Shown here piece by piece: positions 1,772 through 7,139 of a DNA stretch of 7,139 nucleotides (position 1 is its first letter; every line of letters begins with the position of its first letter). A program made the position numbers and the translations under genes. Location: IMG/VR virus record IMGVR_UViG_2541047945_000012; one strand, written 5' to 3'. The stretch comes from a virus. Its lineage: Duplodnaviria; Heunggongvirae; Uroviricota; Caudoviricetes. The notes below the pieces were generated by a model, which had not been told where the DNA came from, did no database searches, and was given only the letters and a program-made list of their open reading frames with translations.

Positions 1772-2397
1772 ACCGCCAGCACCTTACTGGCAGTTATGTA
1801 TCGCGCGCGCCGGTCATCAATGCCGTTCCGGCCACCATTGATAAGCAGAGTTACACGTGCAATATCTCCGGTATACTTCATGCAGCCTTTGCTGGAGAAG
1901 AACCACGCCGCGCTACGAGCCGCGTATTCGTCCTGCGCCAGCAGTTCAGGACTCTCCAGCAGGTCAACCTTAAGACCGTTTCCACAGTCACGATAGTTAT
2001 TCAAACCGGTAATCTGGATAAGTCCGCGCCCACGGTAGTTCCAGCCGTCACCAGGGGCATTGTTCCCCATGCGTTTGCTGTACACCAGATTGGCGATCGC
2101 TCGCTGGCGCTCGAGTGGCAATGGTGGCTCACCAGCACGTCGCCCCAGTGCATTAGCCTGCCCCTGAGTGAGACGCCCAGCCCGAACGAAGTTAGCCAGT
2201 CCGCTGACGCTGTAGTTGAAATTCTCCTGCAACCGGGTGAAGCCCACAGACTCATGCCCGACCTGAGCAATAAACATTGCCAGATCTTCTGGTTTGCTGA
2301 TACCAAACTCTTTCATCGCAGAAGTTATATGCGAGAACCAGCGTGCGGCCAGCGCCTCGCTAATACCAGCAGCTCGCTGGAATTGTTTAATCTCCAT
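1768..2397 (-). CDS. Endolysin, glycoside hydrolase family 19 (chitinase-fold lysozyme), cytoplasmic (no signal or SAR segment)
   Basis: ATG at 2397..2395 with SD GAGG 8 nt upstream; TGA at 1770..1768; 209 aa ([13 protein letters not shown]...). The ORF-track start at 2562 is an upstream extension without an RBS. Contains GH19-type catalytic motifs [10 protein letters not shown] and GRGLIQITG (compare plant chitinase HETG and RGPIQ(I/L)S motifs, from memory). Confidence 0.85.
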
Positions 2398-2695
2398 GTT
2401 TAGACCTCGATATTTTGAAAATCTGAACAACGTTACCGCGTGTTTTAATAACCGCGGCAAGCATGACAGCGTTGATAATGACCTCAGATAAATCCACAGC
2501 CATTGGCGTGCGTAACCAGATTGCATAAGCGACACGAACTGGAATGCTGGCCGCAGCAACAATCAGGAAATAAGCAAGCCACCCACCCCATCGCCTGTGT
2601 TGAGAACCGTTTCTCCGAAATGTGGCAACTCGAACTGCTATACCGGCGCAAATAACCGCATTGGTGATAAGCAAAAAAAGCTCATGAGTTACCAT
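2387..2695 (-). CDS. Small membrane protein between holin and endolysin (2-3 TM; candidate antiholin, second holin or lysis regulator)
   Basis: ATG at 2695..2693 with SD GGGGAG 8 nt upstream; TAA at 2389..2387; 102 aa. Overlaps the holin 3' end by 14 bp and the endolysin start by 11 bp, suggesting translational coupling. TM1 [16 protein letters not shown], a highly basic loop ([15 protein letters not shown]), TM2 [22 protein letters not shown], and a possible short third hydrophobic segment. Confidence 0.7.
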
Positions 2696-3086
2696 CGTCT
2701 TTTCTCCCCGGAATTAACTCGCGTGGATTATCGGAACGGTGATAGAGCCAGATCCCAATTCGCACAGCGACGATTGCTGACACAAATGCACCGGCAGAGA
2801 AAACAATCCCTTTCTCGAAAGAATCCTGTGTGATTGTAGGGATCAGGCTGGCTATGCCGATAAGAATTGATGCTGCTGGTTTGTAGAATAGAAGTCCGCA
2901 GAGAAAGCTAAGCATCGACAAGAGCACGCGACGACGAATGGGATACTCTACCGCAGAGGTAACAAAAATCACCGCCCCAGCCAAAGACCCCAAAGCAACC
3001 TCAGGAGGAACTCCTGCTATCACTGCCGCCAAAGAACTCATGCTAAGCCACTGATTTAAAGTTTCACTGGTTAGTTGAGCTGACAT
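2682..3086 (-). CDS. Holin, class-I-like (three TM segments, charged C-terminal tail)
   Basis: ATG at 3086..3084 (MSAQLTSETLNQW...), preceded by GGTGG with a 5-nt spacer; an in-frame GTG at 3095 is the ORF-track start. TGA at 2684..2682; about 134 aa. Three hydrophobic segments (LAAVIAGVPPEVALGSLAGAVIFV; VLLSMLSFLCGLLFY...ILIGIASLI; IVFSAGAFVSAIVAVRIGIWLY) and a charged tail [19 protein letters not shown]. First gene of the lysis cluster. Confidence 0.75.
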   Translation of the reverse strand: MSAQLTSETLNQWLSMSSLAAVIAGVPPEVALGSLAGAVIFVTSAVEYPIRRRVLLSMLSFLCGLLFYKPAASILIGIASLIPTITQDSFEKGIVFSAGAFVSAIVAVRIGIWLYHRSDNPRELIPGRKDDGNS

Positions 3087-3143
3087 GTTTTCCACCGTTT
3101 ATATGCATAACTACCTCCTGAACAGTAAAGCATTACGCATGAT

Positions 3144-3159
3144 AAACCATTTATGGTTT
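3144..3159. promoter_or_regulatory. Perfect 16-bp palindrome AAACCAT-TT-ATGGTTT just downstream of the putative promoter (candidate operator or 5'-UTR hairpin)
   Basis: 7-bp arms are exact reverse complements with a 2-bp centre. Starts about 12 bp downstream of the -10 hexamer, so it overlaps the predicted transcription start region of the lysis operon. Confidence 0.45.
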
Positions 3160-3170
3160 TTTGTTACCCA

Positions 3171-3199
3171 ATATTACCAATCCAATTCGCGATGGTCAA
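3171..3199 (-). promoter_or_regulatory. Candidate sigma70 promoter for the lysis operon: TTGACC - 17 nt - TAATAT, with TGn extended -10
   Basis: On the minus strand, -35 TTGACC (3199..3194), 17-nt spacer, -10 TAATAT (3176..3171) preceded by TGG. AT-rich upstream. Predicted start near 3164, about 78 nt upstream of the holin ATG. Confidence 0.45.
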
Positions 3200-3451
3200 A
3201 ACATATCCACAGCGGTAAGTTTGAGTGTTTTCATTTCCAAAACTTTATACAATAATATATGCAGTCTGTTATTTTTACGCACAATAAAAACACGATACCA
3301 GCTATTTCGCCATAAATACAATTTCCTTTAATGCTGCCAACAGTGCCTGCAAAACATATAACAGAACACATAAATAACAGGCATAATATAGATTTAATAA
3401 TCCAAGTGCATATAAATATCATTTAAGAAGTTAAGATCATTATTATAATAA

Positions 3452-3483
3452 CAATAACCCCGCTGTTTTATTCGGGGTTATTG
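3452..3483. terminator. Hairpin terminator downstream of the tail fibre gene
   Basis: Stem AACCCCG (3456-3462) / CGGGGTT (3473-3479), extendable to 11 bp, with a 10-nt loop. On the minus strand it is followed by a U-rich tract (TTATTATAATA). It begins 10 bp after the tail fibre stop (3493-3495). Confidence 0.5.
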
Positions 3484-3492
3484 CATTTATTA

Positions 3493-4029
3493 TTACATTG
3501 ACATTAATATAAACATGGCTAATTCGTCATAACGAATTCCGTAGCGTCCTCCTGCTTTTTTTACAAGAATCATATCTCCTGTTTTATATTGAGAATAAAT
3601 TTTCTCACCTGTATCAGGATCTGTGCTCTCTTCAGTTATCACCTCTTCATCCCATACGTCAGGCCATTCATCGTAACACCAAAAAGCATATTGCTCAGGG
3701 TTTAAACCATGCTTTCTAAGAATATCCCCTACGGTTTGAGCGCCAACGCCAAAATGATACCTGGACGACTCAATTCCTTTGTGATTAATTGAGTCATTAA
3801 ATTTAAATTTATAGATGACTGACTTTATTTCAATAGCGGCATCACGCTCTGCATTAAGAATATCATATCTTGTTTTAAGAGTTTCATCTGACGTATTGAT
3901 TGACCCGGTTCCTGCATAGATAACAGAGCATCTGTTTGATGGCTGTCCAATAGCTTTAACATTATCATCAACAGGAGCTATTTTATTAGCATCTGCCAAC
4001 CACCAGTCTGTTCCATCAGCGTGACCGAT
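3493..4029 (-). pseudogene. Tail fibre/tailspike gene, C-terminal fragment (distal to the IS2 insertion) including an intramolecular-chaperone-like domain
   Basis: In frame with fragment 5361-6914 once IS2 and one copy of the 5-bp duplication are removed. TAA at 3495..3493. Encodes ...GHADGTDWWLADANKIAPVDD...SINTSDETLKTRYDIL...GGRYGIRYDELAMFILMSM. The first 9 codons of ORF-track entry 3493..4056 are IS2-derived. Confidence 0.8.
4025..4029. repeat. IS2 target-site duplication, copy 1 (CCGAT)
   Basis: ccgat immediately flanks the IS2 end at 4030; identical to 5361-5365. Confidence 0.85.
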
Positions 4030-4040
4030 TGGATTTGCCC

Positions 4041-4946
4041 CTATATTTCCAGACATCTGTTATCACTTAACCCATTACAAGCCCGCTGCCGCAGATATTC
4101 CCGTGGCGAGCGATAACCCAGCGCACTATGCGGATGCCATTCGTTATAATGCTCGAACGCCTCTGCAAGGTTCTTTGCTGCCGTTAACCCGTCTGGTTTG
4201 GGCATGATACTGATGTAGTCACGCTTTATCGTTTTCACGAAGCTCTCTGCTATTCCGTTACTCTCCGGACTCCGCACCGCCGTGTTCTTCGGTTCAAGTC
4301 CCAACATCCGGGCGAACTGGCGTGTTTCATTAGCCCGGTAGCATGAACCATTATCCGTCAGCCACTCCACTGGAGACGACGGAAGATCGTTGCCGAAGCG
4401 GCGTTCCACCGCTCCCAGCATGACGTCCTGTACTGTTTCACTGTTGAAGCCGCCGGTAGTGACCGCCCAGTGCAGTGCCTCACGATCACAGCAGTCCAGC
4501 GCGAACGTGACACGCAGTCTCTCTCCGTTATCACAGCAGAACTCGAACCCGTCAGAGCACCATCGCTGATTGCTTTCTTTCACGGCCACTCTGCCTGTAT
4601 GTGCCCGTTTCGATGGCGGTACAGCAGGTTTTCGCTCAAGCAACAGCGCATTCTGGCGCATGATCCGGTAAACACGTTTGGCATTGATCGCAGGCATACC
4701 ATCAAGTTCTGCCTGTCTGCGAAGCAGCGCCCATACCCGACGATAACCATACGTTGGCAGCTCTCCGATAACATGGTGTATACGGAGAAGCACATCCGTA
4801 TCATCAGTGTGACGACTGCGGCGGCCATCCATCCAGTCATCGGTTCGTCTGAGAATGACGTGCAACTGCGCACGCGACACCCGGAGACAACGGCTGACTA
4901 AGCTTACTCCCCATCCCCGGGCAATAAGGGCGCGTGCGCTATCCAC
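4041..4946 (-). CDS. insD: IS2 transposase OrfB (InsD; DDE catalytic domain), normally made as an OrfAB fusion by -1 frameshift
   Basis: 301-aa [37 protein letters not shown]...[11 protein letters not shown], recognised as IS2 InsD. Overlaps insC in the -1 frame at the A6G site. Confidence 0.9.
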
Positions 4947-5269
4947 TTTTTTGCCCGTCCATATTCAACGGCTTCTTTGAGGAGTTCATTTTCCATCGTT
5001 TTCTTGCCGAGCAGGCGCTGGAGTTCTTTAATCTGCTTCATGGCGGCAGCAAGTTCAGAGGCAGGAACAACCTGTTCTCCGGCGGCGACAGCAGTAAGAC
5101 TTCCTTCCTGGTATTGCTTACGCCAGAGAAATAACTGGCTGGCTGCTACACCATGTTGCCGGGCAACGAGGGAGACCGTCATCCCCGGTTCAAAGCTCTG
5201 CTGAACAATTGCGATCTTTTCCTGTGTGGTACGCCGTCTGCGTTTCTCCGGCCCTAAGACATCAATCAT
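4904..5269 (-). CDS. insC: IS2 OrfA (InsC; helix-turn-helix DNA-binding/regulatory protein)
   Basis: ATG at 5269..5267 with SD GGAG 5 nt upstream; 121 aa [41 protein letters not shown]... The ORF-track start at 5314 is an upstream extension. Confidence 0.9.
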
Positions 5270-5360
5270 CTGTTCTCCAATGACTAGTCTAAAAACTAGT
5301 ATTAAGACTATCACTTATTTAAGTGATATTGGTTGTCTGGAGATTCAGGGGGCCAGTCTA

Positions 5361-5365
5361 CCGAT
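5361..5365. repeat. IS2 target-site duplication, copy 2 (CCGAT)
   Basis: ccgat immediately after the IS2 end at 5360; identical to 4025-4029. Confidence 0.85.
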
Positions 5366-6914
5366 TCTTACTCTTATCCCACTTCTAATATTTAAACTTC
5401 CAGTATTACTCTGTAAATTACAATCTCCTGAAGTTGGTCCAAGCAGTACAGTTTTACCAACACCACATACTACTCTGGCATTTCCTTTTTGTGATACGAG
5501 TCTTGACTCACCTCCTGACTGCTCAGGAAGAGATTTATGGTCTACAAATGCATCGCGGGGGTTAAATACACCGTCTCCAGAATTATATCTTCCTCCTGTA
5601 TAGTTGTTAAATACAGGACCCCAGTCAACGCCATTGCCTTCAGAGCACCCGACCATTCTAAGCACTCGAGTATTCCCTGCTGCATATGGTAATGAGCTTG
5701 TTGATTGCCTGGAAGCTATCATACGTGCTCCATAACCAATAGCATTACCACCATTTATAGTTACATATGCTGGCTGGCTTTCGAAATATGTACTGTAAAA
5801 GTTCATATTTCCACAGTCATGTAGATGAATAAGAACATCATCCCATCCCTGAATGGTTCCTGCATGTACCTGTACACCGCGAACTGGTTCCCCTGAAACC
5901 TCCATACACTCTGATGGCCGGCTGAATGGCTGAGACAGGTATTGCGATGTGGCAAGCAGATGTGTGTGGTGATACAGGCTGGTAATGTAGCAATCGAAAA
6001 ATTGCGTTCCCGCCATACCAAAGTTATCTATGTCATTTCGCCGTATAGTAGAACCTACTGTTGCCTCAGAAGCGTTAGACACTCCAGTAAATACTAACTT
6101 ATCACCGGATACGGATAATCCTGAATAAGTGAAATTCCTGCCTCCCGATCTTAAAACCCCGGACGTTTCGAAGGTGTGGCTTGATGACCATGGGATTTCG
6201 ATAGTGCTGGACGTTACCGCTGTAATTCGGAATACATCATGGGCGCGGATCGAAACACCCTTGAATCCCTGGAATCTACAGTGATAATAGTTTTCATCCT
6301 CGCCCTGAGCGGCCAGCGTGCCAGATACAGGAATGTTCGTTTTTAAAAGTGCCGTCTTGCGCCAGTATCCAACCACCTGCAAATTGCGGTATTCATTGCC
6401 AAAAGACGCACGTGACCAAATACCTACATCCCACTCATCGCCAAGACCGGTATTTGCAATGTCTTTATAACCATCCAGCCCATTGAAATATGGAACAATA
6501 CGAAAGTTCTCAAGGCGAACACATCCTGTCTCTGGCATCAATATTGCGGCAGAGAATGGTTTAAGCGTGGCTCTTGTAGCCCCATTAGCATCACCGTTAG
6601 TAAAATCCAATAAATCATATGATGACGCAGGTGCCGTTGTTGTATACGGGTCTTCGGAAGATGGATTAGAAACCACACCACCACTAACATCCATATTAGA
6701 AACACAATCTACAGTATATTTTTTATTTCCTACACCGTACATCAGGAATGTGGTCCCTGTGGTAATATCAGGAGCAAATGTTGCAGTATATCCAGAGACC
6801 CATTTGCCCACACCAAGACCAATTATCCCACCACCAGAAACAGGTGTTAACGTATCCGTTATTACATACGCATTATCAGTACCATAAATAACCTTTCCTG
6901 TGTTAATGGCAGCT
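5361..6914 (-). pseudogene. Tail fibre/tailspike gene, central fragment between the IS3-family element and IS2; 5' end missing
   Basis: Open frame of about 517 codons running from the IS3-family terminus (6915) to the IS2 terminus. Gly/Ser/Thr/Asn/Tyr-rich, as in receptor-binding fibre or spike bodies. No credible start codon or RBS inside the fragment, so the N-terminal part must lie beyond the IS element. Codons 1-61 of the 584-aa ORF-track entry are out-of-frame readthrough of the IS transposase. Confidence 0.7.
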
Positions 6915-7139
6915 TGAACCGCCCCGGGTTTCCTGGAGAGTATTTTATCTGTGAACTCAGGCTGCCAGATCATCGTTTCCGATGGAAGCATAATAAGCTT
7001 TTTCTGCTTCTGCCGGAGGAGTATGGCCCAGCCTTTCCAGCAATCGTCGATTGTTATACCAGTCCACCCACGTGAGTGTGGCCAGTTCCACTTCTGCACG
7101 GTTTTTCCAGCTCTTACGGTGTATTACCTCCGCTTTGTA
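6915..7139 (-). mobile_element. IS3-family insertion sequence (IS629/IS1203-like), partial; right end only, continuing beyond the window
   Basis: Terminal sequence on the plus strand from 6915: TGAACCGCCCCGGGTTTCCTGGAGAGTATTTTATCTGTGAACTCAGG, the TG...-type IS3-family end that I recall for IS629. It is followed by the transposase OrfB C-terminus. Exact IS identity not verified. Confidence 0.7.
6957..7139 (-). CDS. IS3-family transposase OrfB, C-terminal 60 codons (5'-truncated by window edge)
   Basis: Minus-strand translation ...YKAEVIHRKSWKNRAEVELATLTWVDWYNNRRLLERLGHTPPAEAEKAYYASIGNDDLAA-stop, with TGA at 6959..6957. This is a typical C-terminal tail of an IS3-family DDE transposase. Confidence 0.75.
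   Translation of the reverse strand, partial: YKAEVIHRKSWKNRAEVELATLTWVDWYNNRRLLERLGHTPPAEAEKAYYASIGNDDLAA

Follow-up and report, generated by a model that had tools for sequence, protein, structure and literature searches.

A conserved dyad box at the start of the lysis operon of an epsilon15/phiV10-type Escherichia coli prophage, with copies at other operon starts

The 7,139-nucleotide stretch analysed here (the window; IMG/VR record IMGVR_UViG_2541047945_000012) holds an E. coli prophage of the epsilon15/phiV10-like type (Uetakevirus), with the host genes yfgI and yfgH alongside. Its closest relatives are Escherichia phage YDC107_2, phiV10, epsilon15, SPN1S and further Uetakevirus phages. 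At the start of the lysis operon, which is read from the minus strand, a preliminary description had placed a perfect palindrome at 3159-3144 and proposed it as a candidate regulatory, protein-binding site. The palindrome is present as placed:

3144-3159, no strand assigned: perfect 16-bp palindrome AAACCAT-AA-ATGGTTT (minus-strand reading), the 14-bp core of which (3145-3158) is the lysis-operon copy of the box AWYCAWWTNTGGTT

We found that this box, an ACC-N6-GGT dyad, recurs 52-78 nt 5' of the first gene in the replication, head, tailspike and lysis operons. The proposal of a regulatory site is supported by conservation of the palindrome and by its recurrence at operon starts, and we take it to be a real regulatory box; its general kind is known, but the box itself has apparently not been described. 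Taken together, its conservation, recurrence, position and dyad core, and the covariation of an overlapping leader hairpin, lead us to the tentative interpretation, held at somewhat short of even confidence, that the palindrome is the lysis copy of a protein-binding control box lying on the core of the lysis promoter. A box common to four or five operon starts provides a concrete handle on the timing of replication, morphogenesis and lysis, and also bears on holin silencing beside the slot in which lysogenic-conversion genes are exchanged. Phages of the epsilon15/phiV10 type are used as reporters and in biocontrol, with Salmonella and E. coli O157 as targets, and are common E. coli prophages.

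A search for more copies of the palindrome, suggested in the preliminary description, was positive. A near-identical complete prophage, located between guaA and yfgI in E. coli YDC107, holds nine matches to the pattern AACCATNNATGGTT with up to 2 mismatches, compared with 1.8 ± 1.3 expected, and none of 200 shuffles reached nine. Four of the nine are intergenic, in a sequence of which 8.7% is intergenic (P = 0.005), and these four stand 75, 52, 78 and 72 nt 5' of the first genes of the gp40-like (replication), gp3-like (head), tailspike and lysis operons, respectively. For phiV10, the pattern AACCATATATGGTT with up to 3 mismatches gave 8 matches against 1.76 expected, a number reached in none of 100 shuffles. 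When AWYCAWWTNTGGTT itself was used with at most one mismatch, the matches in YDC107, phiV10 and epsilon15 were nearly all operon-start sites; the intergenic operon-start copies number four in the YDC107 prophage, four in phiV10 and five in epsilon15. The box carries no annotation in epsilon15 or phiV10. The fifth epsilon15 box (35950-35963) is located between two Rep operators, directly 5' of the RuvC gene. A degenerate box occurs in the YDC107 prophage at approximately 8414-8427 (locus L096, approximately 7674-7687, minus strand), also between two Rep operators and before a DUF1064 gene; its left arm is degenerate and TATGTGGTT is intact.

Conservation of the box was analysed in a lysis upstream set of 96 loci, among which were 52 distinct sequences. 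The genera represented are Escherichia, Salmonella, Citrobacter, Klebsiella, Kluyvera, Scandinavium and Pseudescherichia. In these 52 variants the onset of conservation coincides with the box, the sequence 5' of it being near information-free, and the palindrome core was found in every relative, including epsilon15 and phiV10 despite their diverged surroundings. Three further sets of 80 loci each, covering the gp3, gp40 and tailspike sites, confirmed the box at all three; among the tailspike loci, the box and a GGTAATAGAAT downstream of it contrast with a variable stretch upstream. The right arm TGGTT is nearly invariant, with a looser left arm and a variable centre.

Within the window alone, neither the palindrome nor the promoter match discussed below exceeds chance. 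Shuffled windows contain on average 0.47 perfect 7-2-7 palindromes (probability of at least one, 0.38), and the window indeed contains a second at 5311-5326. The palindrome becomes significant only via comparison, through its conservation and its repetition at the starts of operons. A chance match had been named at the outset as one possibility that would refute the observation: this holds for both elements when the window is taken alone, whereas for the palindrome the comparison goes beyond chance. As judged from the aligned relatives, the observation is real but significant solely through them, and its promoter part is weak and lineage-specific. That a palindrome of this kind is expected by chance in a window of this size, and that its right arm is the more conserved, would suit a palindrome devoid of a function of its own, conserved only through its right half, a part of the leader hairpin, and resembled by coincidence elsewhere. 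We find this hardly credible given nine matches where 1.8 were expected, their location at four operon starts, the lack of an explanatory hairpin at the gp3, tailspike and gp40 copies, and a tailspike box conserved beside a variable upstream stretch.

The preliminary description had further assigned to the lysis operon a strong, near-consensus sigma70 promoter with an extended -10, situated upstream of the palindrome:

3171-3199, minus strand: sigma70-like match, TTGACC at 3199-3194, 17 nt, TAATAT at 3176-3171, with TGG at 3179-3177 (T3179, G3178, G3177)
3173-3178, minus strand: GGTAAT, matching exactly the right half of the Rep operator, ATTACC-N5-GGTAAT; with the following AT it makes up the -10 of the match above

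The hexamers, their spacing and the TG are as described, and a transcription start near 3164 would leave a leader of approximately 78 nt before the holin ATG at 3086. The TG is thus present, but near-consensus is an overstatement. A consensus scan, in line with the promoter prediction that had been recommended, does find the site and scores it at 9/12 plus TG, but sites of at least 9/12 number 15 in the window compared with 11.1 ± 3.4 in shuffles. We also counted, in shuffled windows, matches with a -35 of at least 5/6, a -10 of at least 4/6 including A2 and T6, and an obligatory TG: 0.40 are expected per window (probability of at least one, 0.33), and 0.048 inside the 397-bp AT-rich spacer in which the match is found.

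A homology search using window 3060-3500 as the query recovered 70 E. coli genomes that carry the lysis module. Only 11 of these match over the full length, while the DNA upstream of approximately 3183, which holds the -35, is absent in 59. In the remaining genomes, as well as in phages phiv142-3, EC.W1-9 and HEMP4, homology sets in at 3183, 3170 or 3167, positions that fall within or downstream of TTGACC-17-TAATAT, and the -10 is also lost in most relatives. The segment aligned with TAATAT in phiv142-3 and EC.W1-9 reads TTGACAAT(A/G)C, and among sequenced phages the -35 TTGACC is present only in YDC107_2. Both hexamers are unbroken in three sequence variants of the YDC107-like lineage. The promoter was counted against because its -35 is outside the conserved block, and the claim that it is the strong promoter of the lysis operon is not borne out. 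Since homology of the lysis module starts at 3183, 3170 or 3167, a module-wide promoter must be located at or downstream of the box. The upstream match is lineage-specific, made where a different moron segment joined, and is at most an additional promoter, although it could still work in the YDC107-like lineage. For annotation, this means that the promoter-like match arises incidentally from a recombination joint together with a repressor half-site, and that what is conserved is the box and the leader hairpin.

A functional TTGACC-17-TAATAT with its TG, initiating at approximately 3164 and with the palindrome (approximately +5 to +20) as operator or roadblock, nevertheless has several observations in its favour. 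Among sigma70-like matches in the spacer it ranks first (P approximately 0.05 within 397 bp), its hexamers are intact in the three variants of the lineage, and a start at 3164 would put the entire leader hairpin, including the outer CCA:UGG pairs, into the mRNA, which fits the G.U bias reported below. Furthermore, in 78% of variants a TAATAT derived from the GGTAAT half-site recurs 29 nt 5' of the tailspike box, and this hexamer is also seen upstream of the phiV10 lysis operator. We consider this arrangement unlikely, as the -35 DNA is missing from 59 of the 70 genomes with the module, phiv142-3 and EC.W1-9 have the sequence given above in place of the -10, the match is at chance level window-wide, and the lambdoid comparison underlying it is wrong, as shown below by gene content.

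Promoter-like sequences that overlap the box do occur within the conserved block:

3139-3167, minus strand: alternative sigma70-like promoter GTAACA-17-TATCAT (GTAACA 3167-3162, TATCAT 3144-3139), 9/12, wholly inside the conserved block, the palindrome filling its spacer
3132-3137, minus strand: CGTAAT, which is TATGAT or TATAAT in most relatives (phiV10-type -10); in the window a G at the -11 position disrupts it

Of the 52 variants, 85% have a TAnnnT hexamer at the TATCAT offset (TATTGT, TATCAT, TATTAT). The phiV10 lysis candidate, TTAACC-17-TATAAT, scores 10/12 and has a perfect TATAAT 7 nt past the box, which itself occupies -33 to -20. For the tailspike operon the candidate is TCCATA-17-TAGAAT (8-9/12), with the box overlapping the -35. 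Across 64 tailspike variants the third position of this -10 alone varies (G, A or T), as is typical of a genuine -10.

A second recurring element accompanies the box. Epsilon15 RefSeq record NC_004775 lists 'repressor' sites of the form ATTACC-N5-GGTAAT. These Rep operators are located 4-37 nt 5' of the box at the gp40, gp3 and tailspike sites of epsilon15, phiV10 and YDC107, and at the lysis site in epsilon15 and phiV10 only; allowing up to 2 mismatches, we found none within 100 nt 5' of the window's box. In the window lineage the operator was lost at the recombination joint, leaving GGTAAT (3178-3173) and a second hexamer:

3163-3168, minus strand: GGTAAC, Rep-half-site-like, 10 bp downstream of GGTAAT and overlapping the alternative -35 GTAACA

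Many of the 52 lysis variants have a GGTAAY 4-6 nt 5' of the box. The Rep protein of phage SPC32H, as summarised from Kim et al. 2016, is a tetramer that binds palindromic DNA through two DNA-binding pairs (PMC9638917). The box resembles the Rep operator in being a short ACC...GGT dyad scattered at many operon starts of the same phages, and Rep operators are frequently within 4-55 bp of it; it differs in its A/T-rich centre and looser left arm. With the form AACCAT-N2-ATGGTT (ACC-N6-GGT), it falls outside the Rep operator class. As box and operator have the ACC...GGT core in common and differ there by one extra base pair, a secondary Rep site is a reasonable guess, and binding of Rep to the box is put forward as no more than that.

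The right arm of the palindrome also belongs to an RNA structure:

3094-3150, minus strand: conserved leader RNA hairpin of approximately 57 nt, identified by folding and covariation; the 5' arm starts in the palindrome right arm and the loop is at 3123-3120

AGGAGG (3119-3114), a strong Shine-Dalgarno sequence, is immediately 3' of the loop in the upper stem, and the 3' arm ends beside the GGTGG ribosome-binding site of the holin gene. The fold energy was -20.1 kcal/mol in the window (z = -2.0), -32.1 kcal/mol in phiV10 (z = -5.6) and -36.2 kcal/mol in epsilon15 (z = -5.8). Pairs were counted in the 52-sequence alignment, using a structure that was itself derived from the epsilon15 fold: 87% of cells were paired compared with 38-52% with slid partners, 11 pairs were altered on both sides, and the observed score was equalled in 0 of 500 shuffles. 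Non-canonical cells in the lower stem comprised 129 G.U against 8 A.C, an excess indicating that pairing is selected on the sense RNA and not as DNA symmetry. RNAalifold did not recover the long hairpin from the raw MAFFT alignment, because indels shift the register, and the Rfam covariance models gave no family for it, with two chance-level matches elsewhere in the window. The same segment, upstream of gp23, is annotated in the epsilon15 RefSeq record as a (predicted) RNase III site. The leader hairpin is therefore a candidate RNase III site by annotation, and like known sites (the T7 R sites and the lambda N leader) it is an imperfect helix of approximately 20-24 bp in an intercistronic or leader region; the window hairpin is weaker than its phiV10 and epsilon15 copies, and cleavage by RNase III is a RefSeq prediction for epsilon15.

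An attenuating hairpin in the 5' untranslated region had been suggested for the palindrome itself. Over the distinct variants, the arm positions comprise 158 Watson-Crick pairs, 18 G.U, 4 A.C and 35 other mismatches (mostly T-T), and complementarity across all copies of the box is retained only in the CCA/TGG core of 3-4 pairs. As the 2-nt loop cannot form and the arms are not complementary across copies, selection is unlikely to have acted on a small RNA hairpin, and we rejected such a hairpin as the main function of the palindrome; the real RNA structure is the longer hairpin, which uses the right arm only. The palindrome might still act as RNA if a small 5' stem-loop competed with the long hairpin for GGUUU, switching processing or translation of the holin message. 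Such a role would make sense of the right arm AUGGUUU being common to the palindrome and the long hairpin's 5' arm, of the left-arm CCA in phiV10 and epsilon15 having as its pairing partner the UGG in the ribosome-binding site of the holin gene instead, and of the deviations from core pairing (U.G 18, A.C 4, in distinct variants). It is very unlikely, however: with a 2-nt loop impossible, at most 5-6 weak, A/U-rich pairs are left, plain mismatches occupy 35 of 215 arm cells over all copies, the other copies of the box have no partner hairpin, ribosome-binding-site accessibility shifts inconsistently with the 5' end, and no Rfam family matches.

The predicted accessibility of the holin ribosome-binding site in long versus short transcripts was 0.36/0.46 in the window, 0.25/0.78 in phiV10 and 0.53/0.48 in epsilon15. 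Fold-back occlusion of this site was rejected, as accessibility is not consistently lower in the long transcripts. In fold-back inhibition of IS10, the hairpin is formed only in read-through transcripts, the element's own promoter starting inside it. The arrangement here is similar in that a box-overlapping promoter, if used, starts within the hairpin, so that only transcripts from upstream would fold. Unlike IS10, there is no consistent drop in accessibility in long transcripts, and thus the IS10-defining effect is not seen in silico. The 3' part of the hairpin overlaps a short reading frame:

3064-3108, minus strand: short upstream open reading frame (ORF), AGGAGG 3119-3114, ATG 3108, 14 codons, out of frame with and overlapping the holin-like start

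The ATG of this ORF, in the 3' arm, and the G-rich tract are at least 90% conserved in the 52 variants, the frame and length are not; there are 6 codons in phiV10 (stopping 2 nt before the holin ATG), 12 in epsilon15 and 14 in the window. Its overlap with the holin start suggests that translational coupling or interference may occur.

Returning to the control box, the mechanism that we favour is one in which a phage-encoded regulator binds it as double-stranded DNA, 5' of the rightward replication, head, tailspike and lysis operons and, in some phages, a fifth. At the lysis operon the protein would sit on a promoter core that moves with the lysis module, GTAACA-17-TATCAT (3167-3139) with the box in the spacer in the case of the window, TTAACC-17-TATAAT with the box at -33 to -20 in the case of phiV10, and would decide whether RNA polymerase initiates. 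That a protein binds, which protein this is, whether it acts negatively or positively, and where transcription starts are inferences. The preferred version is negative control, with the box as an operator, which we rank slightly above positive control. The box may serve Rep, the tetrameric repressor of the prophage, as a second and weaker site; it is flanked by Rep operators or by GGTAAY half-sites. Its right arm doubles as the foot of the leader hairpin, which would act on transcripts that arrive from upstream.

Several points weigh against this mechanism. Conservation is lower in the left arm than in the right, an uncommon pattern for a site bound by a symmetric dimer. A single fixed distance from box to -10 was not found at all four sites: the offset to the best -10 is +14 or +21 at lysis and +24 at tailspike and gp3, with none at gp40, and most of the candidate promoters score just 8-9/12. 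With non-uniform offsets, and gp40 lacking a convincing -10, the promoter assignments remain predictions. As regards Rep, a full operator near the lysis box is missing in the window lineage, the box has 6 bp and not 5 bp between ACC and GGT, and the flanks are AACCAT as opposed to ATTACC. The selection of the hairpin as RNA requires that some transcripts start 5' of 3150, and a start approximately 7 nt past TATCAT (near 3132) leaves out the 5' arm, therefore transcription from upstream must exist; its source is either read-through or the TTGACC-17-TAATAT match, a candidate in this lineage. Finally, we found no transcription start or binding data for these phages in the accessible literature, and to our knowledge the transcription programme of the epsilon15/phiV10 type is unmapped apart from the Rep/Ant switch.

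The two RNA and DNA elements could be combined in a bolder model, which we give only a small chance of being correct: a regulator coordinating four Uetakevirus operons, together with a promoter-inside-hairpin device at the lysis operon that shields lysogens from the holin. Transcripts from the box promoter would be without the 5' arm and translated, whereas those entering from the moron slot would fold into a 22-bp RNase III substrate and be inactivated. If true, this device would guard lysogens against holin expression.

In place of an operator, the box could be a positive or loading element, bound by a phage activator or serving as a Q-like antiterminator site in the -35/spacer region of late or middle promoters, such that the operons fire only once an early phage protein appears. 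At most sites the -35 hexamers are indeed poor and the -10-like hexamers good, and the box is common to several operons, as are the late-promoter boxes of P1 (PMC3152322). The position between the -35 and -10 of the lysis promoter matches how the AlpA-binding and the Q-binding elements are arranged (PMC7969949, PMC9371919), and the tandem -10-like hexamers past the box (TATTGT-G-TATGAT) could represent a -10 and a sigma-dependent pause element. Lineages without a full Rep operator at lysis keep the box, which is easily understood if the promoter is off by default. This reading is nonetheless rather unlikely. The phiV10 promoter TTAACC-17-TATAAT, at 10/12, should need no activator, and the lysis promoter is not followed by a terminator: a scan of 3199-3086 gave no intrinsic terminator between promoter and lysis genes, and the leader hairpin has no U tract. 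The replication operon is boxed as well, hence the box does not mark a purely late regulon, and the candidate activator, discussed below, is unrelated to Lpa and has a homologue in a phage without the box.

The comparison with described systems was extended to P1 and to the Q-type lysis promoters. P1 late promoters depend on Lpa plus SspA and have a 9-bp element centred at -22 in addition to the -10 (PMC3152322). The likeness consists in a short conserved element that replaces a good -35, close to the -10, in many operons, and the genome-scattered operators of the P1 C1 repressor are similar to the Rep operators here. The P1 element, AAGTTACTT or ATGTGACTT, is unrelated to the box in sequence, and we rejected membership of the P1 late-promoter class on this basis; in addition, the box-to-(-10) spacing is inconstant, unlike the fixed short distance in P1. 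Neither a Lpa homologue nor AAGTnACTT approximately 9 bp 5' of the -10 was found. In P. aeruginosa, the promoter driving the alpBCDE lysis genes contains the AlpA-binding element, GGGACG-N5-GGTA (PMC7969949, PMC9371919). Like this element and the lambda Q-binding element, the box is a candidate regulator site between the -35 and -10 of a lysis promoter with a -10-like hexamer close downstream; unlike them, it has no terminator after the promoter, no sequence similarity and no linked Q-like protein. Homology of P. aeruginosa AlpA to the PF05930 'AlpA' of these phages was rejected as a coincidence of names, the former being a Q-like factor of approximately 150 aa (PMC9371919). The nearest architecture is that of regulator sites in the -35/spacer of phage late and lysis promoters, none of which is related to the box in sequence.

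A protein that might act at the box was sought among the phage genes. A 112-aa PHROG 536 protein with a CxxC motif is encoded at 3542-3880 of locus L096 (YDC107 prophage), just before a terminator and the terminase genes; this is the gene position of Q in lambdoid phages, and the PHROG label is 'transcriptional regulator'. Homologues are found in N15 (gp46), ZF40, and Yersinia, Vibrio and Aeromonas phages. The protein has neither a Pfam domain nor a solved relative, and compared with P1 Lpa it is unrelated (E = 21). Pectobacterium phage ZF40 encodes a 67%-identical homologue, yet the box is absent from it, making the PHROG 536 protein an unlikely binder; it was rejected on this ground and for its lack of relationship to Lpa. 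It could be an uncharacterised late regulator of the terminase operon. This leaves as candidates Rep, the Cro-like gp39, the AlpA-family (PF05930) protein gp33, the PerC-like gp31 and the small, 66-aa Cys/His-containing gp40. Host consensus sequences, including those of IHF, CRP, LexA and sigma54, were compared by eye and none fits the box. A LexA-like CTGT-N8-ACAG sequence (e.g. CTATTCATATTCACAG) does occur between the Rep operator and the tailspike box (phiV10 approximately 20880-20917; tailspike loci L257-L336), facing a divergent gene for an 85-aa protein that resembles the SPC32H antirepressor. The SPC32H ant gene is reportedly under SOS control, with which a LexA-like box facing an antirepressor-like gene is consistent.

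The gene order of the window places the box between the tailspike and lysis genes:

5345-7099 and 3493-4056, minus strand: tailspike gene, interrupted by an IS2-like element
3445-3493, minus strand: terminator-like hairpin at the tailspike gene end, with a 12-bp core stem AATAACCCCG.../...CGGGGTTATT followed by GTTATTAT (-20.1 kcal/mol)
2682-3086, minus strand: holin-like gene, first of the lysis cassette, three transmembrane segments, homologue of epsilon15 gp23 and phiV10 p27

On the minus strand the order is split tailspike, terminator-like hairpin, AT-rich spacer of 390-397 bp (31% G+C) and lysis cassette, so that the hairpin divides the tailspike gene from the spacer bearing the promoter match and the palindrome. 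The cassette consists of a Phage_holin_8 protein, a Phage_holin_3_7 protein, a GH19 endolysin and a DUF2514 spanin; the holin-like gene, with its ATG at 3086, belongs to Pfam Phage_holin_8 and PHROG 198 'holin'. A podovirus of the epsilon15/phiV10 type, as this prophage is, carries its lysis cassette 3' of the tailspike gene and a variable moron slot. The preliminary description had set the promoter against the lambdoid scheme, in which late lysis transcription depends on Q. A lambdoid context was rejected from gene content and best matches, which are of the epsilon15/phiV10 type, and the contrast with Q antitermination is therefore inapplicable; directly 5' of the lysis genes, where the lambdoid order has Q, are the tailspike gene and the moron spacer.

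The spacer contains a 63-codon ORF (3231-3422, minus strand) for a small, very hydrophobic, Cys-rich protein (MIFICTWIIKSILCLLFMCSV...) without a PHROG match. It occupies the lineage-specific spacer that corresponds to the lysogenic-conversion slot of relatives (oac in phiV10; gp21/gp22 in epsilon15). Two distinct holin-family proteins open the cassette (2387-3086), Phage_holin_8 with its three transmembrane segments and then Phage_holin_3_7, and these may form a holin/antiholin or pinholin-type pair; RefSeq names the first of them merely 'membrane protein' in phiV10 and epsilon15.

Positions 1-1071 were assigned to host yfgH (a glycine-zipper lipoprotein) and yfgI (DUF5384), because the YDC107 prophage has yfgI as a neighbour. 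Similarity to free phage genomes stops at approximately 1110-1162, indicating that the window includes the right prophage-host junction; the other end of the prophage adjoins guaA. An IS2-like (IS3 family) element of 1.33 kb (4031-5359; orfA 4904-5314, orfB 4041-4946) splits the tailspike gene, which is uninterrupted in E. coli YDC107. With its tailspike broken in this way, the prophage copy in the window is probably incapable of producing infectious particles.

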